A DNA stretch of 63,586 bases, counting the filler, from Chrysochromulina tobinii (Eukaryota), in the NCBI GenBank assembly GCA_001275005.1. It is 6 parts of 6 records of this genome, joined end to end, with 100 filler letters (N's around TTAATTAATTAA, not from the genome) between each part and the next. Parts side by side here need not be neighbours in the genome. Positions count along the whole stretch, not along the records: positions 32,492 to 54,466 come from JWZX01001268.1; 5 more parts are not named here. The stretch is one strand, 5' to 3'. Position 1 is the stretch's first letter. The number at the start of each line of letters is the position of its first letter. Below the pieces are notes generated by a model. The model was not told the origin of the DNA and searched no databases. It was given only the letters and a program-made list of their open reading frames with translations. The translations under genes were made by a program, and so were the position numbers. Positions 7,122-61,124 of this stretch are shown piece after piece.

Positions 7122-7391
7122 CGTCTCTGGACGGCTCGAGGATGCAGAGATGCAGGCCGATGCAGAAGCGCGAAAGGGTTCTCACGGGAGCTCCCGCTGA
7201 GAGATCTGCTTCGGTACATGTACATGTACCAAATGCTGAAGGGAGAGTGGTATGATCGAGACTGCAGAAACTTGTTACATGTACATGTAATGCTCCGGGA
7301 ATTGCGATTCACACCATTTTTGGGCTGTGTAATCCCTTTTCTTTGGCGGGGTGACCGAGGTCTCCAACGACCCGAAGTCGGCAGCGTCGCA

Positions 7392-8300
7392 ATGTCAGGC
7401 GAGTCAGAGATCTCGCCCATATCACCCGTGTCTCCCGCGGGCGCGGGCAAATTGCGTGCCTACGTCAAGCAGCATGCCATTGAGCCCCTTCTCGCAGAGG
7501 CGCTCAAGGCGGCGTGTGACACCGGGGCTAGCGATCCGGTGAGCTTCATCGGAAATTTCATGCTGAAGAAGGCAGCTCAAGCGTGCAAGGAGCGCCGTCT
7601 GAGCAAGGAGGCCGTAGCAGAGAGCGAGTACTTGCGCACCACCGCCCTCGGCATTGCAAGCCAACGCACGTGCTGGCTGCTCTTCTTCATGTTCGGGCTG
7701 CTGCTGACTGCAAATGTGCTGCACAAGTTCGAGGCGCTCCTTGAGCGAGAGCTCGAGCTCGCCTTCTTCGTGCCCCTCCTTATCGGCGCGGGCGGCAACT
7801 CGGGCGGCCAGACTGTCTCGACTGTCATTCGTGCCCTCGGCTCAGGCTCAGTCAAGCTGAGCGACGCGCCGCGCATCATCGCCAAGGAGGGGCTCTCCGG
7901 GTTGCTGCAGGCGTTCGTGCTCGTACTGGTGCTCGCGCCCTCGCTGCGCCTGGTCATGGATATCTCCGAGGATGTGACGGTGGTCGTCTGCCTCACTCTC
8001 CTCGGTCTCGGATTCGGCGCCAACAGCCTCGCCTCCGCGCTTACCTTCTTCGTCGCCTGGATGGGTAAGGATCCCGCCGTGATCGTCGGGCCGCTCATGA
8101 CGACCTCAGTCGATAGCATCGGTCTGATGAGCTACCTCGCGATCGCCACGCTCTACATCTCGAGCCCCGGCGGCCCGGATGACGTGAACGCTCTCGGCCC
8201 TGCTTGCAAGCGCAACTGGCACGGCGTCTGCATCCCCGCGAACGAGATGACGCCCTTTTGCAAGGGCAACGTCTTCTCTTCGTGCAAGCCCGTGGTCTGA
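7392..8300 (+). CDS. MgtE-family Mg2+ transporter membrane domain with N-terminal Dpy-30/RIIa-like docking motif
   Basis: FVPLLIGAGGNSGGQTVSTVIRAL, DPAVIVGPLMTTSVDSIGL; N-terminal YVKQHAIEPLLAEALKA...DPVSFIGNFM. ATG at 7392. Confidence 0.88.
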   Translation: MSGESEISPISPVSPAGAGKLRAYVKQHAIEPLLAEALKAACDTGASDPVSFIGNFMLKKAAQACKERRLSKEAVAESEYLRTTALGIASQRTCWLLFFMFGLLLTANVLHKFEALLERELELAFFVPLLIGAGGNSGGQTVSTVIRALGSGSVKLSDAPRIIAKEGLSGLLQAFVLVLVLAPSLRLVMDISEDVTVVVCLTLLGLGFGANSLASALTFFVAWMGKDPAVIVGPLMTTSVDSIGLMSYLAIATLYISSPGGPDDVNALGPACKRNWHGVCIPANEMTPFCKGNVFSSCKPVV

Positions 8301-13028: not shown

Positions 13029-14198
13029 TGGGCCTGGGCATGGGCGGCGCCGCCGGCGGCCCCCATGTTGGCCGGTCTCGTCAACGGCCTACCGCCTCCT
13101 GTACGGGTGGGCATGGTCAACGGCGTGATGCCGTCCAATGGTGGTGCCATGGGCGGCCTGCCGGGCATGGGCGGTGGCATGGGTGGCGCGATGGGCGCCG
13201 CGATGGGTCAATTGCAGATGGGTGGCCAAATGGGAGCCCTCGGTATTGGGGCGTGTGGGCTGATGGGTGGGCCGTTGGGCGGTCAGGGTGCCATGCCGCC
13301 ACCGCCGCCGGGGGGCGTGATGGCACCCCAGCCGCCGGGTGGACCGATGGGCGGCGGCATGTTTGGAGGCATGGGTGGCATGGGTGGCATGGGCGGCATG
13401 GGCGGCATGGGTGGCGGCGTGGGCGGTGGCATGGGTGGCGGCATGGGGGGCGGTATGGGTGGCCAGATGGGTGGCCCGATGGGTGGCCCGATGGGTACCC
13501 CCCTGATGAGCAGCTCCGCTAGCTTTGAGTCGGGGCTGAGCAGCTTCGGTGCTGCAGAGGCGGAGCGGCTAAGGCTCAACGAGGCGGCGGCGGCGCAGAT
13601 GGACGCAGACGGCAAGCTGCTCGTGGGCCTCCTGTGCGCGGCACTCTATCCGCAGGTGATCGCCCTTGAGCGCGAGGAGACGAAGAAGAAAAAGGGCATG
13701 AACGCGCCCGTCAAGCTGCGCATCCGCGACCGCAACGAGGACGGCACCGGCGCGTCGGACCCTGTCGAGGTGGCCCTGCACCCGTCCTCGGTCAACGCGT
13801 CGCACGAAAAGGCGATCGCCTCATCATACCTGATCTACCACGAGAAGGTGCGCACGACGCGCGTATATGTGCGCGACTGCTCGCCCGTCTCCGCGTACGC
13901 GCTCATCCTCTTCGGCGGAGTTCTTTCTTCCCAGCCGGGTGTGCCGCCGCCGCCGCCGCCGGTGACCAAAAAGAATCGGCACCGGCCGCCACCGCCCCAA
14001 GTGGCCAAAGACGGCATCCTGGTCATCGACGGCTGGATTATGTTCTCAGTCTCCGTGCAAGAGCAGCGGCTGCTGCTCGGCGTGCGACAGAAGCTCGACG
14101 AGCTGCTCGCCTCCAAAATTGATTCTCCCGAGCTCGAGGTGGCCGAGGCGGGCAAGGAACTGCTCAGCGCGGTCTCGCAGGTGCTCGCCTCCAATTAA
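8501..14198 (+). CDS. DEAH/RHA RNA helicase (DHX57/DHX36/DHX29-like) with zinc fingers; intron 9686-9870; apparent single-base frameshifts near 11785 and 13064
   Basis: [53 protein letters not shown]2 region SDHLTML, OB-like HPSSVN...[12 protein letters not shown]. Two U1/matrin-type CxxC...HCxGxxH fingers at the N-terminus. Confidence 0.88.
12762..13030 (+). repeat. CAG/CAA polyglutamine tract inside the helicase
   Basis: Long CAG-rich run encoding QMQMQ...QQQFQQQ..., flanked by GGM repeats. Confidence 0.95.
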
Positions 14199-17591: not shown

Positions 17592-17691
17592 NNNNNNNNN
17601 NNNNNNNNNNNNNNNNNNNNNNNNNNNNNNNNNNNTTAATTAATTAANNNNNNNNNNNNNNNNNNNNNNNNNNNNNNNNNNNNNNNNNNNN
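17592..17691. other. Assembly linker (also at 32392-32491, 54467-54566, 57622-57721, 61025-61124)
   Basis: N44-TTAATTAATTAA-N44, a six-frame stop spacer. Confidence 0.98.
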
Positions 17692-28384: not shown

Positions 28385-29308
28385 CTATGCCATGCTGTTG
28401 ATGCTGCCCTTACCGTCCCCGCAGAGTGGGTCGATCATGCACGACGGGATGCTGCCGCTTTGCGCATCCTGAACGATCCTCTTCAAACCTTTACTCACCC
28501 ATGGCAGCGACTTGTTGACCCACACGTCGTTGCCACGCACGCGCATAACAAAGGTATAGCCCTGCTTGCTCAGCATGCGGCGTACACTTCCATCCTGCTT
28601 GCTGAGGACGTTGGTCATGCCAGGGCACTCGAGCTCGACGATTCCGACACCGAAGCCGAAGTCTGTCCAGTTGATGGTCTTGAGCACCCGGAGCTCCTGC
28701 TGCTCAACATCCAAAGAAAAAAGGTCTGCAAACTTCAAGCCGGCGATCCTGAGGAATTCGGAGAGCGGTCGACATGGCACAACGCTCGTCCGCATATGTT
28801 TGTGCTGGCTCATGGTAGTCGCAGACCAACTAGATGCGGTGCCCATGTCGACCGAGTGACCGACCGCGGATTCGGCCGTTCCCAGACCGCCGTGCGTGAA
28901 GGTCATGTTGCCGCCAAAGCTTGCATCACACACAGCACCGCACATGATCACATCGTTGTGCCGGTTCTGGCCTAGTCTTGGGCACAGGTCTGGTGTGGCC
29001 TCAATGAGCACCCCTCGCCAACCGAGGTGGGTGTAGAGCGCGTGCGTGTTGCTCATGGAATGGCCGTCGTTGGCACCAAGCTCGAGGTATGTTCGCCGTC
29101 TCCTCGAGCGGCCATGGTCGTTGGCAACAAAGTAGCGATGGAAGAAGAAATCCTCGCATTGCTGTCCCGTGTATGCGAGGTGTAGTGGAGACCATGGGGC
29201 TAGGAATGCATCGACCATGTTTCGCATCCCCGGCATCGTGATGGCAAATGGCATGGTGTGGCCAAATGTCTCCGTGTGGCCAAATGTGTAATGTCGGGTG
29301 ATGCGCAT
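28385..29308 (-). CDS. FkbM-family methyltransferase
   Basis: YLELGANDGHSMSNT...GWRGVLIEATP...DLFSLDVEQQELRVL. Confidence 0.88.
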   Translation of the reverse strand: MRITRHYTFGHTETFGHTMPFAITMPGMRNMVDAFLAPWSPLHLAYTGQQCEDFFFHRYFVANDHGRSRRRRTYLELGANDGHSMSNTHALYTHLGWRGVLIEATPDLCPRLGQNRHNDVIMCGAVCDASFGGNMTFTHGGLGTAESAVGHSVDMGTASSWSATTMSQHKHMRTSVVPCRPLSEFLRIAGLKFADLFSLDVEQQELRVLKTINWTDFGFGVGIVELECPGMTNVLSKQDGSVRRMLSKQGYTFVMRVRGNDVWVNKSLPWVSKGLKRIVQDAQSGSIPSCMIDPLCGDGKGSINSMA

Positions 29309-29432
29309 GCAAACATGAAAGCCGTGTTTTTGAACCGGAACCGTACTGGGATACCGGGATGTGTCCCGGCTCCCCCGGTGTCATTTTACCTCCCCCGCGC
29401 TCACCACACCTACGCGCCCCAATGTGATATGA

Positions 29433-32391: not shown

Positions 32392-32491
32392 NNNNNNNNN
32401 NNNNNNNNNNNNNNNNNNNNNNNNNNNNNNNNNNNTTAATTAATTAANNNNNNNNNNNNNNNNNNNNNNNNNNNNNNNNNNNNNNNNNNNN

Positions 32492-32623
32492 AGAGGTCAT
32501 CAGAGGCAATCAGAGGTGCCATCCAACGAAACGTGCCCACCTGCATGCAATGAGGGAGGCAATCAGAGGTCATCAGAGGTCATCAGAGGTAATCAGAGGT
32601 GCCATCCAACGAAACGTGCCCAC
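32492..32623 (-). other. Repeat-cassette intron F (stacked, at least 2 units, runs into gap)
   Basis: GAG|GTGGGCACGTTTCGTTGGATGGCACC + 10-mer repeats + CTCCCTCATTGCATGCAG, then the same 26-bp exon copy and repeats again. Confidence 0.85.
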
Positions 32624-35600
32624 CTCGACGGCGCCCGCGGCGCGCCCCTCACCCGAGGTGGCGAGGCCGAAGTCGGTGATGCGCACCTGATGAGGGAGGC
32701 AATTAGAGGTCCTCAGAGGCAATCAGAGCTCATTAGCGAAGACGGTGATGCGCACCACGCCTCCGGAGTCGAGGAGCAGGTTGGAGCACTTGAGGTCGAG
32801 GTGGAGGACCCCCTTGCGGTGCAGGTACGCCATCCCAGTCGCGACACCCTCGGCCACTGACCAGAAGAAGTTGCGAGGTCATCAGAGGTCATCAGAGGTC
32901 ATCAGAGGTCATCAGAGGTCATCAGAGGTCATCAGAGGTCATCACACACCTGACCAGAAGAAGTTGCGAGGGGTTGGTCGGTTGAGTGCCTGCCGTACGT
33001 CGCCGCCGTCGCAGTACTCGAGCACCAGGCAGTATGTGGGAGGCGCCGCAGCCGCGCCGAGGCAGCGTACGATGTTCGGATGGCGCAGTCGGGTGAGCGC
33101 CGCCACCTGATGAGGGAGGCAATCAGATGCAATCATATGCAATCAGATGCAATCAGCGCAGTCGGGTGAGCGCCGCCACCTCTGCACGCCAGCCCGCCAT
33201 GCCCGCCACCCCCGAGCACGCCACCTTGACCGCCACCGCCACGCCCTCCCAAGCGGCCAGGTAGGTCGCGCCCATCGCGCCGCCTCCGATGCGCCGGTGG
33301 AGCACTAGATCATCAAGCGAGATACGCCAGTCCACAGGGCAGTCCTCCGTCAGGTCACCTGATGAGGGAGGCAATCAGTGATCATCAAGCGAGATACGCC
33401 AGTCCACAGGGCAGTCCTCCGTCAGGTCACCTGATGAGGGAGGCAATCAGTGATCATCAAGCGAGATACGCCAGTCCACAGGGCAGTCCTCCGTCAGGTC
33501 ACCGTGCCGCCTTCCCAGCATGCGCGATCGTGCCGCGAGCTGCTCGTCCGCAGCGGCGGCCGCCAGCACCGGCGAATGCGGCGCTGTCGTGGGCAAAGGC
33601 GCTGTCGTGGGCAAAGGCGCTGTCGTGGGCACCGGCGAATGCGGCGCATTGTGGATGGCGAGGGAAGATGAGGGCGCTGCCGTGGGCAAAGGCGCTGTCG
33701 TGGGCACCGGCGAATGCGGCGCATTGTGGATGGCGAGGGAAGATGAGGGCGCTGTCGTGGGCAAAGGCGCTGTCGTGGGCAAAGGCGCATTGTGGATGGC
33801 GAGGGAAGATGAGGGCGCTGTCGTGGGCAAAGGCGCTGTCGTGGGCAAAGGCGCATTGTGGATGGCGAGGGAAGAGGAGGCGTGCGCGTGCACGCTGCTG
33901 AAGGCGCTGATGGCGCTGCTGACGGCGGCAGCGCCGCCGGTGCCCACGGCAGCGCGGGTGCCCACGGCAGCGCTGCAGACGGCGCTGGGGCTGTTGCTGC
34001 TGCTGCCATCGACGCCGACGAGCAGCAGCAACGCACGCTTGAGAGCAGCCGCAGGCAGCGCACGAAGTTGCGCCGCGAGGGCATCGTTTGCATGCTGAGC
34101 CTCCGCCGGCGTGGGCGTGGTGGTGGCGGTGGTGGTCGTGGTGGCGCGCAGGACAGCGGCGACCGCGGCCACGGCCGCCTCGTTCTCATCGATGCTGTCG
34201 CGACCGGCGCCCATCACGGCGCTCGGGACGCCCGTGACGGCGCTCGGGACGGCTGCCTCACTCATCACGGAGAATGCGCCACTGCCGCTGCCGGAGGAGC
34301 CCGTAGTGGGCGCTGCAATGGGCGCTGCAATGGGCGCTGTCGTGGGCGCTGTCGTGGGCGCTGTAATGGGTGGTCCGATCTCGCGCCCGATCTCGCGCAC
34401 GTCGCCTCTCCCCCGCCGGCCAACGGTCGGGCTGAGCGGCCACCCGTCATCTCCCCCGTCATCTCCCCCACATCTCCCCCGCCGGCCAACGGTCGGGCTG
34501 AGCGGCCACCCGGCCGGTAGAGATGTGAGCGTCGTGATGGGCGTTGGCTCGCCCGGGGCGTCGTGATGGGCGCCGGCCGGCGCGGAGCCGGCGAAGGCGG
34601 AGGGCACGGCGGCGGTGAGCTCCGCGAGGACCGCCGCTTCGATGGCTTGGAGCTTGTCGACGTGCTCCGTGTACAGGTCCCAGCAGCGGCGCACGGTGAG
34701 GGCCGTGCGGATGGCGTGCAGGTCGAACTCGGTCATGAGGCGCAAATGAGCCTGAGCGAGCTCCGGGTTCTCAATCGTGAAGCCTTTCGCCATGAGCTGC
34801 AGCAGCCGCGGCGGCGCCGAGGTCCGGAGAGAGTCCTGATACGCCTTCTGGTTCGAGGCGCAGATGACGAGGTCCGCAAAGGCGCGCGGGGGCAGCGCCG
34901 GGACGGCGCGCTCCGGCAGCGCAATCACGCCGGTGAGGAAGCCGCGCATGTAGGCGGTGGACTCCTTGAGCCTTGCGAACTTGGAGATGGAGGAGGCCCA
35001 TAGGGAACCGCCGCTCTCGTGCCACACCTGCATGCAATGAGGGAGGCAATCAGAGGTCATCAGAGGTCATCAGAGGTCATCAGAGGTCATCAGAGGTCAT
35101 CAGAGGTCATCAGAGGTCATCAGAGGTCATCAGAGGTCATCATCACGCACCTGACGCTCGACGAGCTGCAGCACCTCCTCGCACAGCGCCGAGTACGCGC
35201 GCAACACCGCATAGAAGACCTGCGCGCGCCCTGCCACGCCAGGGCCCGAGGCCAGGAAGCTCCGATCTCCCATCGAGGTCGCGGCTGGAGATCGAGGTCG
35301 AGATCTCCGATCTCCCATCGAGGTCGCGGCTGGCGCAGCGGGTGGCATCGAGGGCGGCGAGGAGACGGGTGCGGGGAAATCTGACGAGGAGATCTGACGA
35401 GGTGCGGAGAGATCTGACGAGGAGATCTGACGAGGTGCGGGGAAATCTGATGAATTGCCAAATTCATCAGACCATCGGCGAACTACTTCGGCATCCACCG
35501 CCTCGCGCTGCAGCTGCAGCCGATTGAGTAGCTCGGGAGCTGGCCCAGCCGCATCGGTGCGCCTACGGAAATCAGCGAGCTTGGCACCGAAGGAGCCGAG

Positions 35601-37682
35601 CGTGCCCCCACTCGCCACCCATGCGCACGTCACCCCCCGCTCGCGCTGGAGCGCGTGGAGTAGCAGCTCCCAGCGCGTCTTGCCGCCGCTGTCCGAGCCA
35701 CCGGCCGTCCCGGAGCCGCTGGCCGTTGGGCTGCCGGCGGCGCTCAGGACGGCGCTCAAACTGGCCGTTGGGCTGCCTCGTTGCTGCAGGGTTGGAGCCC
35801 AGTACGGCGCCCCGACCAGAGCGCCGCCGCCAGCCGCTCCGCCTGCCGCGCCCGCGCCCAGTACGGCGCCATCGAGCCACGAGTGCTCGCCCAGTACGGC
35901 GCCGTCTTTCACCTCGGCGGGCAGGTAAGAGAGGGTGGCGGCAGGTAAATGCCTCTCTCCATCCGTGGGCAGGTAAGAGAGGGTGGCAGATGCCGAGGGC
36001 AGGTACGAGAGGATGGCAGATGCCGAGGCAGCGGCGGCCGTGTCGTTCACCGTGGCGCCAGCATGCAGCACATTCACATTCACAGGGAGCGTGGCCGTCA
36101 ACGGGGCGAATGCCGCAAAAGGGGGGGATGCCGCAAAAGGGGGGGATGCCGCAAAAGGGGGGGATGCCGCAAAAGGGGGGGATGCCGAAAAAGGGGGGGA
36201 TGCCGCAAAAAGGGGGGATGCCGCAAAAGGAGAGGATGCTGCAAAAGGGGCGCTGCTGCCGGCCGGCGCGCCCTCGTGCGCGCCGTTGCGCCCATTGGTG
36301 ACTAGGAGCGAAGGCAGTTGACGTTCGACGAGGCGTCGCCAATCGATCGGCGCGAAGAAAGGGTCCGCTCGAACAGCATTCCCGCCCTCTCGCCCTGTGC
36401 CGCCTAGACGGCCCTCGGGCCGTAGGATCAGCAGCTTGGAGATAAGGAGCGACGCGCTCGCCGACACGCTCGGCGGCATCGCGTCCACGAGGACCGCGGA
36501 AGACGACGACCCTAATATGGACGCCGTCCCTAATATGGAAGACGTCCCTAATATGGAGGACGACCCACCCGCGCCGCTCCCCGCCGCCGTGCCCCGCCAC
36601 CTATGGGCGCCGTACTGGGCGGGGAGCACTCGGCCCGTCGGCTGGAGATCGTGATCGAGATTGTGCTCGAGATCGCTCGCCAGCTGCTTCATCTCCTCCT
36701 CTAAAGCAGTCATGCGACTGCCGTCAGCGCCGCCGCCGTGAGCGCCGCCGCCGTGGACGCCGCCGCCGACGTCGCCCAGCCTGTCCTCGTCCAACGTGAA
36801 CATGCCTTCGACCTCGCCGCTGTTGCTGCAGCGCGGCGACCTCACGCCGCCGCTGCTGCTCATGCTACCGGCACAGCTGTGGCCGCCGCAGCTGTGGCCA
36901 ACGCTCGCGTCGTGTTGGGCAAACCGGTCAGCGCCCGTGCCAACGCTCGCGTCGTGTTGGGCAAACCGGTCAGCGCCCGTGCCAACGCTCGCGTCGTGTT
37001 GGGCAAACCGGTCAGCGCCCGTGCCCCACGGGAGCTCTCCTACAAGCATCTCATAGAGCAACACGCCGATGGCCCACCAGTCCACCGCGAAGGTGTATGA
37101 CGCGCCGCGCAGCACCTCCGGCGCCATGTACTCGGGCGTGCCGACCTGCGAGCGCGCTGAGATCGAGGTGGAGCCGCCGAAGCTCGACGAGCCTAGCAAG
37201 CGCTTGGCGGTGCCGAAGTCGGCGAGGACCGCGTGGCCGTCGAGCCCGAGCAGCACGTTCTCGGGCTTAAGGTCGCGGTAGATGATCCCGTGCTCGCGGT
37301 GCAGGTGCTCAATCGCGTGGGTCATCTGGGCGAGCACGAGCCGCGCCGCCTCGGTGGCGAGAGGCCCGTGGACCTGCAAGTGGCTGAAGAGGTCGCCGCC
37401 GCCCACAAAATCGAGCGCCTGATAGAAGTGCGAGTGGTCCTCGAAGGCGTAGTGAAGCCGCACAATGTATGGATGCACAATCTGCTTTAGCAGCACACTC
37501 TCCTGCTCTACCCGCTGGATTGCGCGGGCCGAGCCCAGTGCCGCTTTGCTCACCACTTTGAGCGCAAAGAGCTTGCCGTTCGACGAGTGGCGCACGAGCA
37601 CCACCTCCGCCGAGCCCCCCTGACCCAATACCCTCAACGCCTCAAAGTCGGAGATCACCAGCGACGATGGAGGGGCCTCCAT
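32492..37682 (-). CDS. Dual protein kinase: AGC-type kinase, NIT-like sensor domain, TKL kinase; 6 introns; 3' truncated by gap
   Basis: Kinase 1: LGQGGSAEV, FALK, YRDLKPEN, DFG, GTPEYMAPE, VDWWAIG. NIT-like LHALQRERG...RRRTD...LKES. Kinase 2 after splicing: IGGGAMGATY, VAVK, LRHPNIV, HLDLKCSN, DFG, GTFRWMAP. Confidence 0.88.
32687..32755 (-). other. Repeat-cassette intron E (19-bp downstream-exon duplicate, 1 mismatch, decayed repeats)
   Basis: GTGCGCATCACCGTCTTCG...CTCTGATTGCCTCTGAGGACCTCTAATTGCCTCCCTCATCAG|GTGCGCATCACCGACTTCG; removal restores SGGV-VRITDFG. Confidence 0.88.
32857..32949 (-). other. Repeat-cassette intron D (mirror type, 22-bp upstream-exon duplicate at 3' end)
   Basis: CCTCGCAACTTCTTCTGGTCAG|GTGTGTGATGAC(CTCTGATGAC)6-CTCGCAACTTCTTCTGGTCAG|TGGCC; removal restores FFWSVAEGVATGMAYLH. 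Confidence 0.9.
33107..33179 (-). other. Repeat-cassette intron C (24-bp downstream-exon duplicate)
   Basis: GAG|GTGGCGGCGCTCACCCGACTGCGC + TGATTGCATC-type repeats + CTCCCTCATCAG|same 24 bp; restores RAEVAALTRLRHPNIV. Confidence 0.9.
33359..33502 (-). other. Repeat-cassette intron B (two 72-bp units: 51-bp exon duplicate plus 21-bp acceptor cassette)
   Basis: Three exact 51-bp copies (33308-33358 exon, 33380-33430, 33452-33502) separated by ACTGATTGCCTCCCTCATCAG. Confidence 0.9.
35028..35150 (-). other. Repeat-cassette intron A (9 x 10-bp repeat, only CAGGTG shared at the ends)
   Basis: CAG|GTGCGTGATG(ATGACCTCTG)9-ATTGCCTCCCTCATTGCATGCAG|GTGTGG; joins the 859-aa and 537-aa ORFs in phase 0. 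Confidence 0.9.
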
Positions 37683-37915
37683 GTCCTGTATCCCACCAAC
37701 CGCGGGCACTCTCGACCTCCGTCAAGGGGTGTGTGCTCTCTCGTCCTCCGTCCATGTCAAGTCAAGTCCACGGCCAATCGATCATGTTTTCGGCCATTTT
37801 CAAAACAATTAGCTCGAGAACGGCTCGGCTCATGGATGGTCGTGGCGGCGGTGCTCGTTCAAATTCCGTCGGAATCACGAGTTGTTACGCTCACTTGCAA
37901 GAGTGTGCGAACACA

Positions 37916-39559
37916 ATGCGGCTCACGGTCGTGGAGGAGACGCGAAGGCGTCGGGAAGCGCGGGCATTGGAGGAGGCCGATGCCCTGGCGCAGATGATGG
38001 CCTCTCGCGAGGTCGCACACGAGCTCGCACGCGTTGAAAAGCAGCTCATGGGCGTCAGGGCCGAGTGGACCAAACCCAGTAACTCGCTGCCCAACATCTA
38101 CCCACCGGGAAATCTTCCGCGCGCGATGACGCCAGGGGTCGGCCTATCGCCACAGTTTCGGAGAGGCGCCGACGCAGGGCGCGTCTTGCCTCAGCCACGG
38201 TCTTACATCCACCCTGAGGCGGCGTTCGAGTCGAGGGCGCGTGCACAGTCCTTGCCTGGTCGCATCCGTCGCAACGACAAGGTGTTGAGCGGGTTGAGGA
38301 GGGACCCTTGGGAGGGCGCCACGGTGCTGGTGCCGCTCAAGACCATCACGCCCGTGAACGCCAGGAACCTAGGGTCCCGAAAGTCGAAGAAGCTGCCGAC
38401 GACGACGACACGCCGATCTCCCCTCGACCCGCGCGCTCCACTGGTCGCACAGCTGCTCCACTACTTGCTGGCGGATCTGATCGAGGACCCCGAGATGTAT
38501 GTGGAGGCGACGAACCGCATCGCGCAGAGCTTCTCGGCCTGGGACACCGACGGCAGCGGCTCGATCAGCCGTTACGAATTTGCGAAGGCGATGGCCGTCA
38601 TCGGCTTCCCGTGTACCTCGGAAGAGCTCCACGCCCTCTTCCAGGAGCTCGATGCGGACGGCTCGGGCAGCATCACGTACGCCGAGCTGCTCGCCGCGAC
38701 GCGCGTGCACACGCCCATGTTCCACGGCAACGGGCTCCCACCCGCGCCTCCTCCGGCGGCGCGTACTCGACCCGGCGGCAGCGGCAACGCCCAATCCAGA
38801 GGCGCCGAGTACATCACATCCACCCAGAACCTTCCGCCGATCGAGGCGCCAATGTCGTGGGTCGATGGGCGCTCGATGGCGGGGCAGATTGCGGACATGC
38901 TCAAAGACCAGATGCGCCGTGTGACCGACACCTTCAAAAAATGGGACACGGACGGCCGCGGCACGCTCGAGTTCTCCGAGTTCTCGAGGGCGATGGCCGC
39001 CCTTGGTCTGAAATCGACGAAGAAGGTCGAGGAGCTGTGGAGGCAGTTTGATGCCGACGGCAGCGGCGCGATCAGCTTTGAAGAGTTGCGCATGGCGCTC
39101 GAGCCGTCGAAGCTCGGCGCGGTCGACACGGCCGGCGGTGCCGGCGGCATGATGGCCGTACCCGACGCTTACGGAGGCAACCAAAATACCTTGTCGAGCG
39201 AGACGATCAATAAGGAGATGCACGTAGGGCTCTCATCCAAATTACGCTCCCCGACCGAGCAGATGCACGAGGCCTTCGACGAGATGGCCACCGACCGCGT
39301 GCTCGACGTGTTCAAGGCGTGGGATGCGGACAATACGGGCACCCTCTCACGTGCCGAATTTGCCAAGGCGATGGTGCGCATGGGAGTGAAGTGCACCCGC
39401 GCAGAGCTCTTTAAGCTCTTCAACGAGATCGATCCAGATGGCTCGGGCGAGATTAATTACCGCGAGCTCTACTGGGCGATCAAGGAGAGACGTGGCTACG
39501 TCAAGGGCAGCCGCTCGCGCGACGTGACGAAGCCCGATGGCTGGGCTGAGGGGCGTTGA
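37916..39559 (+). CDS. Protein with three EF-hand pairs (start uncertain)
   Basis: DTDGSGSISRYE, DADGSGSITYAE, DTDGRGTLEFSE, DADGSGAISFEE, DADNTGTLSRAE, DPDGSGEINYRE. Confidence 0.9.
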   Translation: MRLTVVEETRRRREARALEEADALAQMMASREVAHELARVEKQLMGVRAEWTKPSNSLPNIYPPGNLPRAMTPGVGLSPQFRRGADAGRVLPQPRSYIHPEAAFESRARAQSLPGRIRRNDKVLSGLRRDPWEGATVLVPLKTITPVNARNLGSRKSKKLPTTTTRRSPLDPRAPLVAQLLHYLLADLIEDPEMYVEATNRIAQSFSAWDTDGSGSISRYEFAKAMAVIGFPCTSEELHALFQELDADGSGSITYAELLAATRVHTPMFHGNGLPPAPPPAARTRPGGSGNAQSRGAEYITSTQNLPPIEAPMSWVDGRSMAGQIADMLKDQMRRVTDTFKKWDTDGRGTLEFSEFSRAMAALGLKSTKKVEELWRQFDADGSGAISFEELRMALEPSKLGAVDTAGGAGGMMAVPDAYGGNQNTLSSETINKEMHVGLSSKLRSPTEQMHEAFDEMATDRVLDVFKAWDADNTGTLSRAEFAKAMVRMGVKCTRAELFKLFNEIDPDGSGEINYRELYWAIKERRGYVKGSRSRDVTKPDGWAEGR

Positions 39560-41911: not shown

Positions 41912-44842
41912 TTAGGCCTGATAGGAACTGTCTGTGTCTGCCGTGCACAGCTTCTCGCCGCCTTTGCAACGGTGGTAGGCGATGAGGTAGTCGATGTGCA
42001 CGTACTCCGAGTGGAAGATAACAAACTCGCGGTAGCGCACAAGCCCGCCGGTGTCCACTGTTCCACTCGATATCAGCTCGGCGATCAGCGAATGGTGGAA
42101 GATTGGTGGCGTGACGCCCGGCACCGCCGAGAGCTCACGGTAGTTGACGGGGAAGATTTGCTCGCGAGTGTCCATCGAGGTGGCCTTCTGGCCCACCTGC
42201 CGTGTGCGTACGGGGTAGCCGAGGGCTGCGCGCACCACGAGAACGTAGAAGACGTCGTCTGGGTGGCGCACGGTTTCGCTGTACAGCCGCTTGTGCAGCT
42301 CACTGCTTGGGTTGTACGCGCTGTCGGGGCTGACGTACTGATCCGTCTTGCCAGCGTCCTCCGCGAGGTAGACGCCGTCGCCAAAGGCGGTGCCCGCGCC
42401 GGTGCCTGAGAAGCGCTCGTTCAGGCCCGTGGACAGCAGGTCTAGCAGCCGATCTGGGTTGGTGCCATGCAAGAGGATGACCTCATTGCAAGCCTGCGAG
42501 AGGGTGAAGCCGCGCGCACGAGCCGTCTTCACGGGCAGGCCGGGCACATAGGTGACATCCTTGCCCTTCTTCTCGAGCAGCTCGAGCTCATGCTGCACGC
42601 GCTCCACGCCGGCCGTGTACTTGGACAGGTTGCGTGGATGGTCGACCTTCCACGCACACGCGAGCTTCAGCGAGTCGTACGGGCCGTACCTTTTCGACAC
42701 GTCCTTGCCCTTGCCGAGCCACTCTGGGCGCTCTGTCTGGATGACTGCCTCGAGCGAGCGTAGCACGCGGGCATCAGACACCGGCCGAAGCGCGAAGCCG
42801 TCCTCCTCTAGAGCGCGATCTTGCGGCTCCGCGGCTGCCTTCTGCGTGGCCGCAGTCTCGGCCTCCGCCCTTTCCGCCGCCGCCTTCTGCACCGCCGCCT
42901 TCTCGGCGGCCGCTGCCTTCTCTGCAGCCGCCTTCTGCGCGGCCGCCTTGTGTGCCGCCCTCTTGTCCGCCGCCGCCCTGTATGCCGCCACGGCGCCTCC
43001 AGATAGCGAGCCGAAGAAACCCCGCTGCACGACCGCCTTTTCCGGCGCCTCTCCCCCGTGTTTCTCGTTCTCATTCAGGGCCTCCACCTGAGATCCTGTT
43101 TGGCAAGCCGACAACAAAGGCTCAGATGCGGCAGCGGTGGCGGGTACCAGTAGTGGCAGCGGAGTACCATCGGTCGCAGGCTGCCCCATGAACCCGGGCC
43201 CATCCGTTTGCCCATCCGTTTGCCCATCCGTGGGCGCATCCACACAGCTCTGCCTATCGGTATCCAGGTCCAACTTTGGAGACGAATTTTGGTCCAACTT
43301 TGGAGACGGGCACGTGTCGAGCCTTGCCTCCACCGGCCGCCCGGGGGCGAGCAAGAGCTGAGGTGCGTCCTCAAGAAGCACCGGCAAGTCGCGCCCCCGG
43401 GTCGCGCAAAAGAGGCCATACTGGGCGATTAAGGCCTGCAGGGGATTCCCGATCAGCGATGCGACCGAGCGCTCTCCGGCGTCACTGGCGAGCTCGGCTG
43501 CAAAGCTCTCAATCTCCGCCGCGGCGGTTTCGAGAGCGGCCGCCTTCGTGTTGCACTCCTCCTGCAGCTCCAGCAATTCGGCACGCTTCTTCGAGAGGCT
43601 GATTCGGGCATCTAATCTTGGATCCTCGGCGACCTTGGACTCGAGCTTACCAACCTCCTTGTACGCCGCGTCGCGCTTCGCCTGCAGCGTGCACAGCGCC
43701 TTGGCCTTCTTCTCGTACTCTTCTGCCTTCTCAACCCAAGCCTTGAAGAGCTGACGGCACAAGCCGAGCGCCTCGACCAGTGTGGCGACCGCCGTACGGC
43801 ACGCGCCACACGCCGCCGACAGCTCCGCCTCCGGCAGCCGGATCGCCTCGATGCGCGCCTTGACAGCCTCGTCCTCGATCTGCGCCGCGAGCGCCTCGAG
43901 CGTAGCCTCCTCCCTGAGGGGCGCGAGGAGCGTCTCGATGCGCCGCTTGACGAACTCCTCGAGCAGCGCCGCCGACGACTTGCACCGGCGCTTGGCCAGC
44001 GTCCACTGCATGATGTATGCCGCGAATCTTGCCTCTTTCTCCTTGGGCGCCTTGCGCACGACCAACGGGTTGTAGTCGGCCGACGGCTGCTGCTGGCCGT
44101 GCACCACAGCGGTCGAGCCACGCACAAAGTTGTGATAGGCGCTTGCGAGCATCGTCATCGCGTCACAAATCGGACCCGTCTCGGCCGCTAGCCGCCGCGC
44201 GCGCGCGGTATCGAGCGCCGCGGGCTTGGCCTCGATCTGAAGGCGCTTCATCTCTCTCTGCGCCTCGGCGATGTCGGCCAGTGCGCCGCCGCGCTTGAGC
44301 GCCTCTTGCGCCGCCTCGAGTGCATGGGTAGCGTCTCGCAGCTGCAGCTCGAACGCGTAGAGCCCCTCGAGGCTCTCGATCGCCATGCGCACGCCCTCAC
44401 GCAGTTTAGGTACCACCTGAGAGCCGATCGCCGAACGCTCCGCCACCATGAGGTCCTCGATAACCGCCAGCCGTGACGCGTCAAGGAAAAGCTGCTCGCT
44501 GCACGCGCTCGAGCCGCAGAAGAGCTCATGCTTCGGCCACTCAGCAAGCTCCGGCAGGCTAAGCATCACTTCCAGCGAGTGCGACACTCCAGCACTTCCC
44601 GCGCTGATAGCTGACGTTGTCGTACTTGACTTCTTCGGAGGCTCTGCATACTTGGCGTAGAAGGTCGCGGCGCTCTCAAGCGTCGTGCGCAGCCGGCGCA
44701 GCGAGTCTATCATCTCGGTTATCGAAGAGTCGATGGCCAGGCCCTTCACCTTGTTGTCGTGCGTCTTGTCCGGGTCGCTGCTCAAGAAAGAGGTGACCGA
44801 AGCGCCTCGAGCGGCGGAGGCCGCCGCACGTGCGAACAGCAT
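41912..44842 (-). CDS. Long coiled-coil protein with C-terminal PARP-type ADP-ribosyltransferase domain
   Basis: NEVILLHGT, AFGDGVYLAEDAGKTDQY, VRAALG, REFVIF...YLIAY (H-Y-E triad). ATG at 44842. Confidence 0.88.
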   Translation of the reverse strand: MLFARAAASAARGASVTSFLSSDPDKTHDNKVKGLAIDSSITEMIDSLRRLRTTLESAATFYAKYAEPPKKSSTTTSAISAGSAGVSHSLEVMLSLPELAEWPKHELFCGSSACSEQLFLDASRLAVIEDLMVAERSAIGSQVVPKLREGVRMAIESLEGLYAFELQLRDATHALEAAQEALKRGGALADIAEAQREMKRLQIEAKPAALDTARARRLAAETGPICDAMTMLASAYHNFVRGSTAVVHGQQQPSADYNPLVVRKAPKEKEARFAAYIMQWTLAKRRCKSSAALLEEFVKRRIETLLAPLREEATLEALAAQIEDEAVKARIEAIRLPEAELSAACGACRTAVATLVEALGLCRQLFKAWVEKAEEYEKKAKALCTLQAKRDAAYKEVGKLESKVAEDPRLDARISLSKKRAELLELQEECNTKAAALETAAAEIESFAAELASDAGERSVASLIGNPLQALIAQYGLFCATRGRDLPVLLEDAPQLLLAPGRPVEARLDTCPSPKLDQNSSPKLDLDTDRQSCVDAPTDGQTDGQTDGPGFMGQPATDGTPLPLLVPATAAASEPLLSACQTGSQVEALNENEKHGGEAPEKAVVQRGFFGSLSGGAVAAYRAAADKRAAHKAAAQKAAAEKAAAAEKAAVQKAAAERAEAETAATQKAAAEPQDRALEEDGFALRPVSDARVLRSLEAVIQTERPEWLGKGKDVSKRYGPYDSLKLACAWKVDHPRNLSKYTAGVERVQHELELLEKKGKDVTYVPGLPVKTARARGFTLSQACNEVILLHGTNPDRLLDLLSTGLNERFSGTGAGTAFGDGVYLAEDAGKTDQYVSPDSAYNPSSELHKRLYSETVRHPDDVFYVLVVRAALGYPVRTRQVGQKATSMDTREQIFPVNYRELSAVPGVTPPIFHHSLIAELISSGTVDTGGLVRYREFVIFHSEYVHIDYLIAYHRCKGGEKLCTADTDSSYQA

Positions 44843-45286
44843 GAATTTCGTTTCCTGCCCTTCCGCAAAGTTTGGCCGTCCTTGCAAGTTCAAATAAGAA
44901 TACCATTCTTGTCAAGTTCCTCGATTATTCGACTCGCATGGTTTCAAATGGAGCCAAGATACACCGTACCCGGCACCGTACAGAAGGGGACATGTATTTT
45001 GGTGGGCCTCTGGGCCATCTCCTTGATGGCAATGTACCGGCTTTTCCCCCTGGGCCTCATTGAAAAGTGTTTGCAGGGTCGTTTCGGCTCGAACTGACTG
45101 CGCTTTCTTCTTACACGTTCGCCGGTTGTCGCGTCTGTCGTGTTAACGTTCACGTTCGCGTGACACGTGACACTCTTTGTGCGAAAAGTCTGTGGGGTCC
45201 AGGTCGGACCGTCCAAGCGCGCACTTTTCCGCACAACCCGAAGTCCCCGCCAAGTGCGCGCTTCAGCGTCGTAGCACAGTGTCACG

Positions 45287-49280: not shown

Positions 49281-51989
49281 ATGGCGCCGGCTGCGTCGAG
49301 CCTCTTGGCCACCATCCTTCGCGACGTGGACGCGAACCCGGCCAACGTGCAGGGCGCGCTGGCTGTGCTGCGCGGGCGCACGCTAATCGCCGTGGTTGAT
49401 ACGCAAACGCTCGACGCGTGGAGCTCTCGCTTGCAGGCATTGCTTCGAGGCCCGGTGCCCGAGGCTCGGGTCGCGGCGGCGGCGCTGCTCAGCGAGACGG
49501 TGCAGCAGTGCACGCAGTTCGAATTTGCACGGCACCGCGAGCAGTGGGCGGCAGCTCTGCTCCACTTGCTCCAGCCCATCAGCGAGGCCACGTCCGAGGC
49601 GGCCATCGCTGCGGCCACCTCCGTGCGGCTCGCTGCCGCTGAGGCGCTCGCGCACATGGTGACAGTGTCGGCAGGCTGGCCGGGCGAGCGGCGTGAGCTC
49701 TCGGGCGCGGTATCACGCCTTGCGACCGCGCTGGTCTCGATGCTTGGCGAGGCAACCACGCAGCACGGTGCGCTGCTCGTGCTCAGCCGGCTGTGCGCCG
49801 CTGTGCCTCACAGCCTTCGGGCCCATCGCGACAAACTGGGCGCGGCTCTGCCGTCAATTGCGCTCGAGGCGGGCGCCCCGGCCGCACGCGCCGCCGCGGC
49901 GCTCATGGGCGTACTGCCCAGCTGCCTGCCGGTCGCCGCGGTCGAGGAGGCATGGCTGTTGCACGTGCAGCGGCTGGTCGGGACGATGCACCGGGCACTC
50001 GCTCTGCTGCTAGGCGCCGTCGTGAGCGCGCCACCGGTACGGTACGAGCTGCCTGCTTACGCGCTGCCCGCCGAGGCGCAGGCGAGCGCCGTCGTGGCGC
50101 CGTCCTTCGGAGTGCCCACGACGGCGCCGTCGGTGGCCGCTCAACACAGCGCTCGCACGAGCGCAGCGGCGCAGCGGCGGCGCTCGGCTTTAGTTCGGTG
50201 CGTCTCTCGTTGTGCTCTTGCGTTGCATTGTGGCTTGTGCCCGCCCTCGACGCCGGCGGACGCCCTGCCGATGCCCGTGCCGCTCGAGCTGCTGGTCAGC
50301 ACCGCCGCCTACATCCTCGACGCTGACGGCTTGGTCCCGGTTCGCGTACCGGTCACCGAGGCGGCCCTGCCGCTCGCGGAGGCGCTGCTCGTCCTGCCCG
50401 AGGTGCACCTTGCAGCGCTCCAGCTGCTGCACTCGACGGTGGCGTGTGCGCAGCGTCACGCCCTCGGCCACGTGTCGACCATCGCTCCGGTGAGTGCCGT
50501 TAATTGCTCTGATTGCCTCTGATTGCCTCTGATTGCCTCTGATTGCCTCTGATTGCCTCTGATTGCCACTCATTACGGCCACGTATCGACCATCGCGCAG
50601 CTCCTTCGGCGTTCGTGGCAGCGCACCTCGCCCTCCGGCCCGCCCCAGCTGCGCTGCGCCGAGCTACGCGCGGCCACATACGCTCTGTCGGCGGTGCTCT
50701 TGAAAGCCTTTGGGCCATGTGTGGTGGGCGCCATGGGGGAAGCGCTCGTGAGCCACGCTCTCCTCGACTTGACTGGTCAGCTGCCTTCCCGAGCCAGCGC
50801 TGCCGCTGCACACGACGGCGGCGCTGGAGCGCGCAAGCGACAGCGTCAGAATGAGGACGGCAGCGTCGGCGGCAGCGTCGGCGGCAGCGTCGGCGGCAGC
50901 GGCGTTGCCGCCAGTGGCGCTGCCGCCACCGGCGGCGGGCGGCCGGCTCCGGTGGGCGTGCAGTGTGCGGCCCTGAGCGCCGTGCACGCCCTCCTGCTAG
51001 TGGGCTCCGAGCTGCTCAACCTCGCTCTCCTCGGCCGGCTACAGCGGGCTCTCCTCTCGGCGTGCGTCGACGCGGCGCAGTGCGCGCCCGGGACGGCGCT
51101 GCACGCGCTGCTGCTCTCGGCGCTGGGCGCTGCGGTGGGCACCGGGCGCGCCGTGCATGGCGACGTACTGCCGCGCGCCATTGCGGTGCTGCAGGGCGCG
51201 GGCGTGCGCGCGCCCGTCGGCGTGGCGCGGGCAGCTGCGTTCAGCGCATTGCATGCATCGGATCCCCTGCTGCATCCGGGCGGGGTTGCATGCTGGAGCC
51301 TACCGGCAGAGGAAGAACGTGCCGCCGACGCCGCGGCTCGGCCGGCGGTTACGGCGGTTACTGGCGCCCACCACGACGCCGCGGCTCGGCCCGGAGCCAC
51401 CACGGCGCCTGCCTCCACGCTGGCCGGTGCCCCTGCCTCCACGCTGGCTGGGGCCCCTGCCTCCACGCTGGCTGGGGCCCCTGCCTCCACGCTGGCTGGG
51501 GCCCCTGCCTCCACGCTGGATCTCTCCTCCATTGCCCCTGCCTCCATTGCCGTTGGAGCTCGCCCCACCCTCCTGCCTGTGGGATCGGGCGCCGTCGTGG
51601 GCGCGACGGTCGAGGCGTCGAGATGGGCGCCCGCGACGACGCAGGGGCCGCCATCCGCGATGCCGTCCGCGCCGCCGCCGCCCGCACCGCCGCCCGCACG
51701 GGCTTCTGAGGCGCCAGCTCCACCCGCTCCACCCGCTCCACCCGCTCGGGCCGTCGCAATCTCGATGGCAATCTCGAAGGCCGCGCCGCCGGCCGCCCTT
51801 TCGCCGGGCTTGCGGACTGGAGCTCACGACGGCGCTCCGCTGCTGCACCTTCCAGGCGCAGCGTACGCTCACGACGGCGCGCCGATGGATGACGACGACG
51901 ACTCCGAGGTCGAGCTTGTCATGGCTCCTCCCGACGAGGCCGATCGGAGCGCCGTCGTGAGCGCCGGGCAGATCGGAGCGCCGTCGTGA
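49281..51989 (+). CDS. RIX1/PELP1-like ribosome biogenesis protein (intron 50490-50600)
   Basis: Helical N-terminus AWSSRLQALL...LLSETVQQC...WAAALLHLL, PxP-LHP motifs, Pro-rich region, acidic end DDDDDSEVELVMAPPD. Confidence 0.7.
50490..50600 (+). other. Repeat-cassette intron, mirror type, (CTCTGATTGC)6 plus 25-bp upstream-exon duplicate
   Basis: CGGCCACGTGTCGACCATCGCTCCG|GTGAGT...(CTCTGATTGC)6...CGGCCACGTATCGACCATCGCGCAG|CTC. Confidence 0.88.
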
Positions 51990-54466: not shown

Positions 54467-54566
54467 NNNNNNNNNNNNNNNNNNNNNNNNNNNNNNNNNN
54501 NNNNNNNNNNTTAATTAATTAANNNNNNNNNNNNNNNNNNNNNNNNNNNNNNNNNNNNNNNNNNNN

Positions 54567-57500
54567 TGCTGAGCCTGCTTTGCATGATGAGGATGCTGAG
54601 CCCGCTGAGCATGGCTGAGCATGATGAGGATGCTGAGCTCAATGAGCAGGCTGATCACGCTGAGCAGGCTGAGCAGGCTGAGCTTGCTGAGCTTGCTGAG
54701 CACGCTGAGCACGCTGGGCACGCACCGAGCACGCCACAGCGATCCCGGTGATGATGAGCCCGCTGAGCACAATGAGCTTGCTGAGCCCGCTGAGCATGAT
54801 GAGGATGCTGAGCACGCTGAGCATGATGAGGATGCTGAGCCCGATGGGCAGGTTGAGCAGGCTGAGCATAGGCTGAGCAGGCTGAGCTCGCTGAGCTTGC
54901 TGAGCACGCCGGGCACGCACCGAGCACACTGCAGCAATCCCGGTGATGCTGAGCCTGCTTTGCATGATGAGGATGCTGAGCCCGCTGAGCATGATGAGGA
55001 TGCCGAGCTCAATGAGCAGGCTGAGCACGCTGAGCAGGCTGAGCAGGCTGAGCTTGCTCAGCATGCTGGGCACGCGCCGAGCATGCTGCAGCGATGGCAG
55101 TGATGATGAGCCCGCTGAGCGCAATGAGCTTGCTGAGCCCGCTGAGCATGATGAGGATACCGAGCCCGCTGAGTATGATGAGGATGCTGAGCTCAACAAG
55201 CAGGTTGAGCAGGCAGAGCTCGCTGAGCTTCCTGAGCACGCCGGGCATGTGCTGAGCACGCTGCAGTGATGGCGGTGATGATGAGCCCGCTGAGCACAAT
55301 GAGCTTGCTGAGCCCGCTGAGCATGATGAGGATGCTGAGCCCGCTAAGAATGATGAGGATACTCTGCCCGCTGAGCATGCTGAGGATGATGAGCCCATTG
55401 AGCAGGGTAAGCAGGCTGAGCACGCTGGGCACGCGCCGAGCACGCTGCAGGGATTACGGTGATGATGAGCCCACTGAGCACAATGAGCTTGCTGAGCCCG
55501 CTGAGCATGATGAGGATGATGAGCCTGCTGAGCATGATGAGGATGATGAGCCCAATGAGCAGGTTGAGCTTTCTGAGCTTGCTGAGCAGGCTGAGCGGGC
55601 TGACCTTGCTGAGCTTGCTGAACACACTGACCTTGCTGAGCATGCTGAGCATGCGGAGCACGCTGAGCTTAACTTGCTCAGCACGCCTATCGGGCTCATT
55701 ATCACCATCCTTGCTACAGCGTGCTTGGTGTCTCAGCGTGCTCAGCAAGCTCAGCAGAATCAGCGTGCTCAGCAAGCTCAGCATGCTCATCGAGATCACC
55801 TTCCTCATCCTGCTCAGCGGGCTCAGCATCCATATCGAGCTCAGCATGCTCACCATCGCTCAACATTGCTGCAGCATGCTCTCATGCTTCACAGGGTCAG
55901 CAAGCTCAGCAAGCTCAGCAAGCTCAGCAAGCTCAGCAAGCTCAGCAAGCTCATAGTGCTCGGCATCCTCATATTGCTCATCAGAAGCTCAGCAGGCTCA
56001 CTCAGCATCCTCATTGTGCTCAGCGGGCTCATCATCCGTTGCCAACATCGCCACAGCGTAATCAGCGTGCTCTGCAGGCTGAGCAAGCTCCAATAGCCCA
56101 GGAAGCTAACAGGATGCTCAGCAAGCTCAGCAAGCTCAGCCTGCTCAATGAGCTCATCATTCTCATCGTGCTCGGCGCGCTCAGCATCCTCATCATGCTC
56201 AGCGGGTTCAGCAAGCTCATCGTGCTCAGCGGGCTCATCATCACCGCCATCGCTGCAGCTTGCTCGGCTCGTGCCCAGCGTGCTCAGCAAGCTCAGCCTG
56301 GTCAGCCTGCTCAATCTGCTCATCAGGCTCAGCATCCTCATCATGCTCAGCGGGCTACGCATCCTCATCGTGCTCAGCGGGCTCAGCAAGCTCATTGTGC
56401 TCTGCCGGCTCATCATCACTTCCATTGCTGCAGCGTGCTCAGCTTGCTCAGCAGGCTCAGCAAGCTCAGCGAGCTCAGCCCGATCAGCCTGCTCAGCCTG
56501 CTCATCAGAAATATCATCATCCTCAGCATGCTCAGTGGGCTCAGCATCCTCATTGTGCTCAGCGGGCTCAGCAAGCTCATCGTGCTCAGCGGGCTCATCA
56601 TCACTGCCATCGCTGCAGAATGCTCGGCACGTGATCAGCGTGCTCAGCGTGCTCAGCGTGCTCAGCGTGCTCAGCAAGCTCAGCAGAGTAAGCCTGCTCG
56701 TTGGGCTCATCATCTCAAACGTGCTTATCGCGCTCAGTATCCTCATCATGCTCAGCGGGCTCAGCGAGCTCATTGTGCTCTGCCGGCTCATCATCACTTC
56801 CATCGCTGCAGCGTGCTCAGCTTGCTCAGTAGGCTCAGCAAGCTCAGCAAGCTCAGCCCGATCAGCCTGCTCAGCCTGCTCATCGGGCTTAGCATCCTCA
56901 GCATGCTCAGTGGGCTCAGCATCCTCATTGTGCTCAGCTGGCTCAGCAAGCTCATCGTGCTCAGCGGGCTCATCATCACCGCCATCGCTGCAGCTTGCTC
57001 GGCGCGTGATCAGCGTGCTCAGCGTGCTCAGCGTGCTCAGCAAGCTCAGCAAGCTCAGCAGGGTAAGCCTGCTCAGCGAGCTCAGCCCGAACAGCCTGCT
57101 CAACCTGCTCATCAGAAATATCATCCTCAGCATGCTCAGTGGGCTCAGCATCCTCATTGTGCTCAGCGGGCTCAGCAAGCTCATTGTGCTCAGCGGGCTC
57201 ATCATCACTGTCATCGCTGCAGCTTGCTCGGCGCGTGCCCAGCGTGCTCAGCAAGCTCAGCCTGGTCAGCCTGTTCAGCGAGCTCAGCCCGATCAGCCTG
57301 CTCCACCTGCTCATCGGAAGCATCATCCTCAGCATGCTCAGTGGGCTCAGTATCCTCATCATGCTCAGCGGGCTCAGCAAGCTCATTGTGCTCAGCGGGC
57401 TCATCATCACTTCCATCGCTGCAGCTTGCTCGGCACGTGCCCAGCGTGCTCAGCAAGCTCAGCGATCTCAGCGAGCTCAGCCTGCTTACCCTGCTCATTG

Positions 57501-57621
57501 GGCTCATCATCCTCAGCATGCTCAGCGGGCTTAGCATCCTCATCATGCTCAGCGGGCTCAGCATCCTCATTGTGCTCAGCGGGCTCATCATCACCGTCAT
57601 CGCTGCAGCGTGCTCGGCGTG
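54567..57621. repeat. Complex satellite built from GCTGAGC-containing subunits, with an orientation switch near 55670
   Basis: GCTGAGC/ATGATGAGG units up to ~55668; the reverse complement GCTCAGC/CCTCATCAT afterwards. Confidence 0.93.
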
Positions 57622-57721
57622 NNNNNNNNNNNNNNNNNNNNNNNNNNNNNNNNNNNNNNNNNNNNTTAATTAATTAANNNNNNNNNNNNNNNNNNNNNNN
57701 NNNNNNNNNNNNNNNNNNNNN

Positions 57722-61024: not shown

Positions 61025-61124
61025 NNNNNNNNNNNNNNNNNNNNNNNNNNNNNNNNNNNNNNNNNNNNTTAATTAATTAANNNNNNNNNNNNNNNNNNNN
61101 NNNNNNNNNNNNNNNNNNNNNNNN

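Follow-up and report, generated by a model that had tools for sequence, protein, structure and literature searches.

The window analysed here, a stretch of 63,586 nucleotides from the alga Chrysochromulina tobinii, which we take to be a haptophyte, is stitched from contigs at five 100-base gaps (17592-17691, 32392-32491, 54467-54566, 57622-57721 and 61025-61124), so that adjacency across them is not real evidence. Each gap consists of two N runs around a 12-base insert, the insert at 32436-32447 being an all-frame stop linker. The region of interest is a protein kinase gene with five intron positions within about 130 codons (Table 1). Elsewhere the window contains a PARP-domain gene (41915-44911, minus strand), an EF-hand gene (37562-39556, plus strand), an MgtE gene (6858-8297, plus strand) and an FkbM methyltransferase gene (28388-29380, minus strand), together with a long 9/18-bp satellite (54567-57618) whose orientation is opposite on either side of about 55700. 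The kinase gene also bears exonic tandem repeats (33598-33980), and a contig of run X16 joins 33597 to 33981, corresponding to a length polymorphism of ~380 bp.

The introns are classed here by the source of their splice sites: donor-type introns carry the donor and take the acceptor from a duplicate of exon sequence, acceptor-type introns do the reverse, and complete introns carry both sites.

Table 1. Introns and related features of the window and of metagenome locus L026
Feature	Position	Strand	Description	Evidence
Host gene	32624-35027	minus	Ser/Thr/Tyr-type protein kinase exons	Pfam matches on exons flanking D; open frame once spliced
Intron A	35028-35150	minus	Complete form, 123 nt	Skipped in 3/3 RNA runs
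Intron(s) B	33359-33502	minus	Two 72-bp units, each ~51-nt duplicate + 21-nt acceptor tail	Sequence
Intron C	33107-33179	minus	Acceptor-type, 73 nt, 24-nt duplicate	Skipped in X2; still present in X1 and X4 contigs
Intron D	32857-32949	minus	Donor-type, 93 nt, GT..AG	Sequence; skipped in X1, X2 and X4 RNA contigs
Donor head of D	32938-32949	minus	GTGTGTGATGAC	Head type otherwise only in intron A
10-mer array inside D	32875-32944	minus	7.0 perfect 10-mers	Repeat analysis
Intron-side duplicate of D	32857-32878	minus	22 nt, supplies AG	Sequence comparison
Exon-side duplicate of D	32950-32971	minus	22 nt, upstream exon end	Sequence comparison
Intron E	32687-32755	minus	Acceptor-type, 69 nt	Skipped in X1 and X4 (2/3 RNA runs)
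Intron F	32541-32623	minus	Acceptor-type, last 50 nt common to A	Sequence comparison
Second donor-type intron (candidate)	50490-50600	plus	RIX1-domain gene, 111 nt	Duplicate and restored frame
Third donor-type intron (candidate)	5419-5498	minus	LRR gene, 80 nt	Sequence
L026 composite introns	~9838-10145 and ~13986-14180 (0-based, reverse strand)	minus		Sequence

Intron D and its mirror-image neighbours

Read on the minus strand from 32949 to 32857, intron D opens with its GT head, continues with seven 10-mers and closes with a copy of the preceding exon end, a layout already described in the first-pass annotation and borne out by the identity of the two 22-nt duplicates and by RNA. The span assigned to it there, 32857..32971, stands as a sequence pattern and not as the extent of the intron, since it comprises the intron plus the exon copy. 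At D the match of the duplicate extends 22 nt upstream and 0 nt downstream of the junction, whereas the corresponding upstream/downstream values are 2/24 for C, 1/13 for E and 2/33 for F, so that the opposite arrangement proposed for D is confirmed against these three. The repeats nevertheless lie on the sense strand in all of these introns (A, C, D, E and F), again as had been noted, and no inverted pairs were detected in D, A or the intron at 50490.

A perfect pair of 22-mers in register with GT and AG is far beyond chance, and a single one of the 23 equivalent cut positions at D yields GT..AG. The duplicate contains no AG|GT, and the donor and the branch-like repeats come from foreign filler. 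Every 10-mer of D includes the branch-site-like motif CTGAT, the final one 26 nt from the acceptor. The first 4 nt of the intron-side duplicate also prolong the 10-mer repeat, which amounts to microhomology, and the last 5 nt of the exon-side duplicate are the same as the last 5 nt preceding the donor of A. The ends of A have only 3+3 nt in common (CAG|GTG), and a second copy of the unit of F extends into the gap at 32491. In the candidate at 50490-50600 the duplicates (50465-50485 and 50576-50596) are followed by 4 nt that differ at the junction, and the putative intron at 5419-5498 is ordered as head, repeats, a truncated second acceptor module and then a duplicate with a 4-nt indel.

The predicted boundaries of D agree with RNA: exactly its 93 bases, with CT..AC ends, are skipped in contigs of all three RNA runs, which as contigs rather than reads do not place the cut within the 22 ambiguous bases. 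The kinase frame has 0 stops with D removed, compared with 6 when D is retained. Since intron removal looks like an empty allele in sequence, DNA lacking D had to be considered. Contigs of X1 and X4 lack D and keep C partly or wholly, whereas C is absent in X2, a pattern indicative of partial splicing and not of a second allele. The retention of C in two runs may reflect slower splicing of this intron. D is the only simple donor-type intron with RNA confirmation, the two simple donor-type introns of L026 being absent among the RNA joints listed.

A family of duplication-flanked inserts

The sample comprised 129 metagenome loci plus the window (743,790 bases); the loci, all picked with the same repeat pattern, represent a small and biased fraction of the genome. 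Related introns gave at least 140 matches at unlinked metagenome sites, and a search of a viral collection for the family returned no match. Out of 854 repeat blocks, 802 had enough flanking sequence and 357 a flanking duplicate; once 10 repeat-like ones had been removed, the remainder represented 215 independent events, of which 68 were acceptor-type and 27 donor-type, 30 had both sites in the duplicate and 90 had none in register. In-register GY..AG was thus found in 125/215 inserts, compared with 23.5% in shifted controls. The proposition that duplicates always begin with GT or end with AG is too strong in the face of this fraction; by inspection, many of the 90 unclassified inserts are secondary events inside introns or carry small junction indels. 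A gap-tolerant classifier was dropped, as decoy dinucleotides scored as well as GT/AG.

The more general proposition, that the duplicate supplies the missing splice site, is well supported. Where an acceptor tail abuts the duplicate, GT or GC is in register in 44/57 cases (background 17%), and where the insert carries GT, AG is in register in 12/21 (background 6%), the latter figure coming from a strict test that replaced a looser count (23/43) that included GTs inside the duplicate. Downstream of the 27 donor-type inserts, GT follows in 11, GC in 7, and an unambiguous non-GT/GC sequence, as at D, in 9; the 18 cases with GT or GC next may be duplications in front of older introns. Neighbouring arrays less than 1 kb apart have their strand in common in 237/251 cases, and those farther apart in 47/76.

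The duplications are 11-59 bp long (median 23), with the commonest length in 9/95 and the detector blind below about 11 bp; the inserts measure 31-245 nt and have variable ends, with a terminal inverted repeat in 1/94 and poly(A) in 0/94. The short duplications of fixed length (3-9 bp), fixed ends and terminal inverted repeats of MITE-type introners are therefore not what we observe. Target duplications of variable length, a trait of non-LTR elements, do occur, and acceptor-type inserts have a fixed 3' end and a variable 5' end, a polarity that is reversed in donor-type inserts including D; the repeats of acceptor-type inserts are internal and do not form a 3' simple-repeat tail. The far end of the intron does repeat the adjacent exon end in direct orientation, a trait of break repair. 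The trait of tandem duplication, both sites derived from an AG|GT inside the duplicate, is absent from D and applies to up to 30/215 relatives.

The idea of one consensus cassette did not hold up either. Heads are varied, at least three acceptor tails occur in the family, unit usage differs between the types (31/68 versus 3/27, p=0.002), and in 5/27 donor-type inserts the last part is a truncated acceptor-tail fragment. An unrelated 6-mer satellite filler of GAGATT/GAGATC units lies between duplicates of 17-29 bp at L026 + 7844, L030 + 3374 and L048 + 8164, which shows that the process is not tied to the 10-mer; the same filler is seen in the window at ~35259-35330. A second, non-repetitive acceptor module consists of a conserved ~24-nt branch-site-like core, a variable pyrimidine tract and the end CCCCACAG. 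It was seen in L001, L005, L011, L017, L046, L063, L069 and others, as well as in the window at 5419-5498 (minus strand). Its 111 cores, 61 of them independent (22 acceptor-type, 4 donor-type, 14 both, 21 none), are in register in 40/61 cases compared with 32% in controls, and leave the same long-duplication footprint as the 10-mer inserts. Duplication-flanked introns are also numerous in a family-A DNA polymerase gene at L069 1904-2113 (minus strand), whose best structure match is polymerase nu (E 7.5e-12).

Some complete introns result from two events at a single site, one donor-type and one acceptor-type, and repeated rounds are seen in L026. Its two composite introns begin with a head and repeats, followed by a fossil copy of the exon junction in its uninterrupted state, then further repeats and a tail, meaning that complete introns can be assembled from two half events and that the complete form need not be ancestral. 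One of these composites is skipped whole in an X4 RNA contig, and RNA from another L026 intron reveals the use of a donor carried by the insert together with an acceptor that came from duplicated target sequence.

Similarity between neighbouring introns

Across the whole 0.74-Mb sample, the head type of D is found only in A and D, which lie 2.2 kb apart and have in common the 5 exon bases before GT, while F shares the last 50 nt of A, compared with at most 24 nt among 54 other acceptors of that type. The suggestion that A is the complete local form thereby gains support. As judged from these alignments, D corresponds to the 5' half of A and F to its 3' half, and A is likely to have been the local template for both, matches that were noticed after the fact; gene conversion between neighbours could be an alternative source of them. 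A similar pair occurs in L061, where two donor-type introns 356 bp apart on the minus strand (~6416 and ~6772) have a common head, cassette end and 7 upstream exon nt. Although the two cassettes are almost the same, one of these introns has a duplicate with differences at about 5 of its 23 positions, which is surprising.

Local similarity was examined in seven ways, with uncorrected p values: three tests were positive, three negative, and one gave an excess without a p value. The longest shared tail was that of a neighbour in 8.1/82 cases versus 2.1 expected (p=0.0045), and the two further positive tests gave p=0.014 and, for acceptor-type inserts, p=0.024; donor-type inserts displayed a small excess (2.0 versus 0.49). 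The tail-based tests cover mostly the CATCAG tail, their pattern having caught 0 perfect TTGCATGCAG tails, of which a separate search found 56. No local excess was detected in 8-mer content (p=0.27), mean tail mismatch (p=0.57) or unit spectra (p=0.55), and most best matches are non-local, with near-identical heads at unlinked loci. Copying would accordingly be local only in part.

Clean variable junctions carry microhomology averaging 2.8 nt in donor-type inserts (9/21 scorable) and 2.6 nt in acceptor-type inserts (12/42), compared with 0.66 nt in simulations. Mismatches between duplicates concentrate at the splice junction (21/140 versus 18/413, and 24/300 versus 25/908), which is consistent with carry-over of 1-4 nt of the template exon; selection on splice sites or small indels could also produce them.

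Origin of the inserts

Direct observation covers the anatomy and splicing of D, the existence of the family, duplications of variable length, microhomology at the junctions and an excess of local look-alikes. On balance, we think that D probably arose by templated insertion at a staggered break or stalled fork, with the front half of an existing intron, probably A, serving as the template. The template for such an insertion would be a pre-existing intron, in many cases one close by, copied from either of its ends. Two 3' overhangs would be left by offset nicks or by a stalled fork, and their fill-in would make the duplication; one 3' end would anneal by a few bases at the exon-intron junction of another family intron and copy inward, in the case of D over the 5 shared bases before GT; and synthesis would come off the template within the repeats, where 2-4 nt match, and rejoin upstream, duplicating the target. 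Top-strand priming would give donor-type and bottom-strand priming acceptor-type inserts, and because either strand can prime, both mirror types would be in sense orientation. In coding exons splicing would act as a filter, such that the survivors are inserts whose duplicate starts with GT or ends with AG and so provides the missing site, with the 10-mer repeats likely providing the branch site, and repeated events at one site would create tandem series and complete introns of composite origin. No empty allele corresponding to a D-like site without the intron was found among the small number of loci that overlap, so that insertion is read from the anatomy only. An apparent empty allele in L009/L090 was rejected, as it reflected a tandem series within sequence that is 100% identical. 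Telomerase-like addition was set aside by reasoning, since it leaves fixed heads and tails at opposite ends unexplained.

Alternatively, the reverse transcriptase of a non-LTR element might prime at a break on pre-mRNA or intron RNA and copy part of an intron, which we regard as rather unlikely. Target-primed reverse transcription would explain the long, variable duplications and the variable truncation, and the acceptor-type inserts have the polarity and the fixed 3' end expected of it; local templates would fit the gene's own transcript, and microhomology priming inside the repeats could yield donor-type inserts. Ordinary target-primed truncation, however, leaves a fixed 3' end and a variable 5' end, the reverse of what donor-type inserts display, poly(A) is lacking from all 94 inserts, and neither a reverse transcriptase domain nor a transposase was present in the 70 long ORFs checked of the 255 found. 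Carry-over at the junctions speaks against an excised intron as template, though not against pre-mRNA.

Another possibility, which we consider improbable, is that no new positions were created and that slippage and tandem duplication across the junctions of old introns reshaped them, the original half being lost afterwards. Tandem series and junction-spanning duplications are indeed common (the 30 both-site inserts and many of the 90 unclassified ones), GT comes next in 11/27 donor-type inserts, and RNA reveals stacks spliced as one intron. This history does not account for D and 8 other donor-type inserts followed by exon sequence without GT or GC, nor for the density of intron positions in the kinase gene, nor for the fossil of an uninterrupted exon junction preserved inside the L026 composites.

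A non-autonomous DNA transposon (an introner or MITE) that brings one splice site with it and recruits the other from the duplicated target site appears highly improbable. Splice-site co-option from the duplicate is a known introner rule (PMC9860276), and the many look-alike introns and common heads at unlinked loci are what a mobile element would leave; yet the duplications lack a modal length and greatly exceed 3-9 bp, which largely refutes this reading, and the near absence of terminal inverted repeats, the variable ends, the occurrence of both types on one strand and the several unrelated fillers point the same way. Overall, a fixed transposon-like cassette fits less well than copying from existing introns.

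Collapsed or mis-joined repeats are a scarcely conceivable source of D, despite the repeat-rich surroundings and the adjoining assembly gap: both ends of D are present on contigs of the independent run X16, roughly 1-2% diverged, which shows that D is not confined to this assembly or created by it; its removal in RNA takes place at canonical ends, and another assembly (L041) matches the A/B part at 99.93% identity.

Relation to known modes of intron gain

The closest known system is intron gain by break repair in Daphnia, where repair of staggered double-strand breaks left repeats of 4-12 bp (33 cases) around filler of mostly unknown source (PMC4202315, PMC3443670); such gain is also treated in PMC3296678 and PMC8469720. 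As in Daphnia, the new intron is filler between direct repeats of the adjacent exon end, and repeated rounds at one site lead to mosaic introns. Unlike in Daphnia, the duplications span 11-59 bp, the filler can be recognised as part of another intron, often a neighbour, and one of the splice sites comes from the duplicate.

Introners, including a marine Chrysochromulina family, take one splice site from the target-site duplication, and not all of them have terminal inverted repeats (PMC9860276); co-option of one site is also described for Polarella introner classes 6/8/10 (bioRxiv 10.1101/2020.10.14.339549) and in PMC11282704. The present family resembles introners in carrying one site and recruiting the other from the duplicate, in its perfect splicing and in its many copies per genome. 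It differs in that the known introner duplications are of fixed length, 3-9 bp, and introner ends are fixed, whereas here both vary and terminal inverted repeats are missing, and in that the templates are partly local. Two-way use in the Polarella classes, as described, results from insertion in either orientation, whereas here both types lie on one strand.

In tandem genomic duplication across AG|GT (PMC3443670), the duplicated exon supplies the splice sites, as it does here, and this route fits up to 30 both-site cases; D differs from it in that its duplicate is devoid of AG|GT and its donor and branch-like repeats are foreign filler. End-joining of 3' overhangs, which in mouse cells gives tandem duplications, microhomology and occasional in-cis templated inserts (PMC5730883), shares all of these features with the family (see also PMC8355091), although it was demonstrated in engineered mammalian cells and not as a source of introns.

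A literature search, with most subscription journals outside its reach, found no description of this intron family. A 2025 introner screen reported 0 families for one Chrysochromulina species, perhaps not the organism of the window, and three motifs of the present family are absent from the material of that study (12/14 supplements searched; PMC12130899). Introner screens may thus miss such families.

Implications

Three things are new in this work: a mirror type on the same strand with RNA support, introns that are half-copies of one close by, and the assembly of complete introns as composites. How the sequence of new introns originates is an open question: mass gain is at present credited almost wholly to transposons, and the source in break-repair cases is mostly unknown (PMC4202315, PMC12130899). 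In the present family the sequence itself reveals that source, with template, junction homology and duplication legible at hundreds of sites, so that a repair-driven route can be tested across the genome. We tentatively propose, as a plausible generalization that is still somewhat short of probable, that introns can multiply without transposons, with host break repair copying the front or back halves of introns, often within the same gene, the duplicate completing the splicing signals and stacks of such events building complete introns. If true, the copying of intron halves would name a source of new intron sequence, and break repair would account for hundreds of intron gains in one algal genome.
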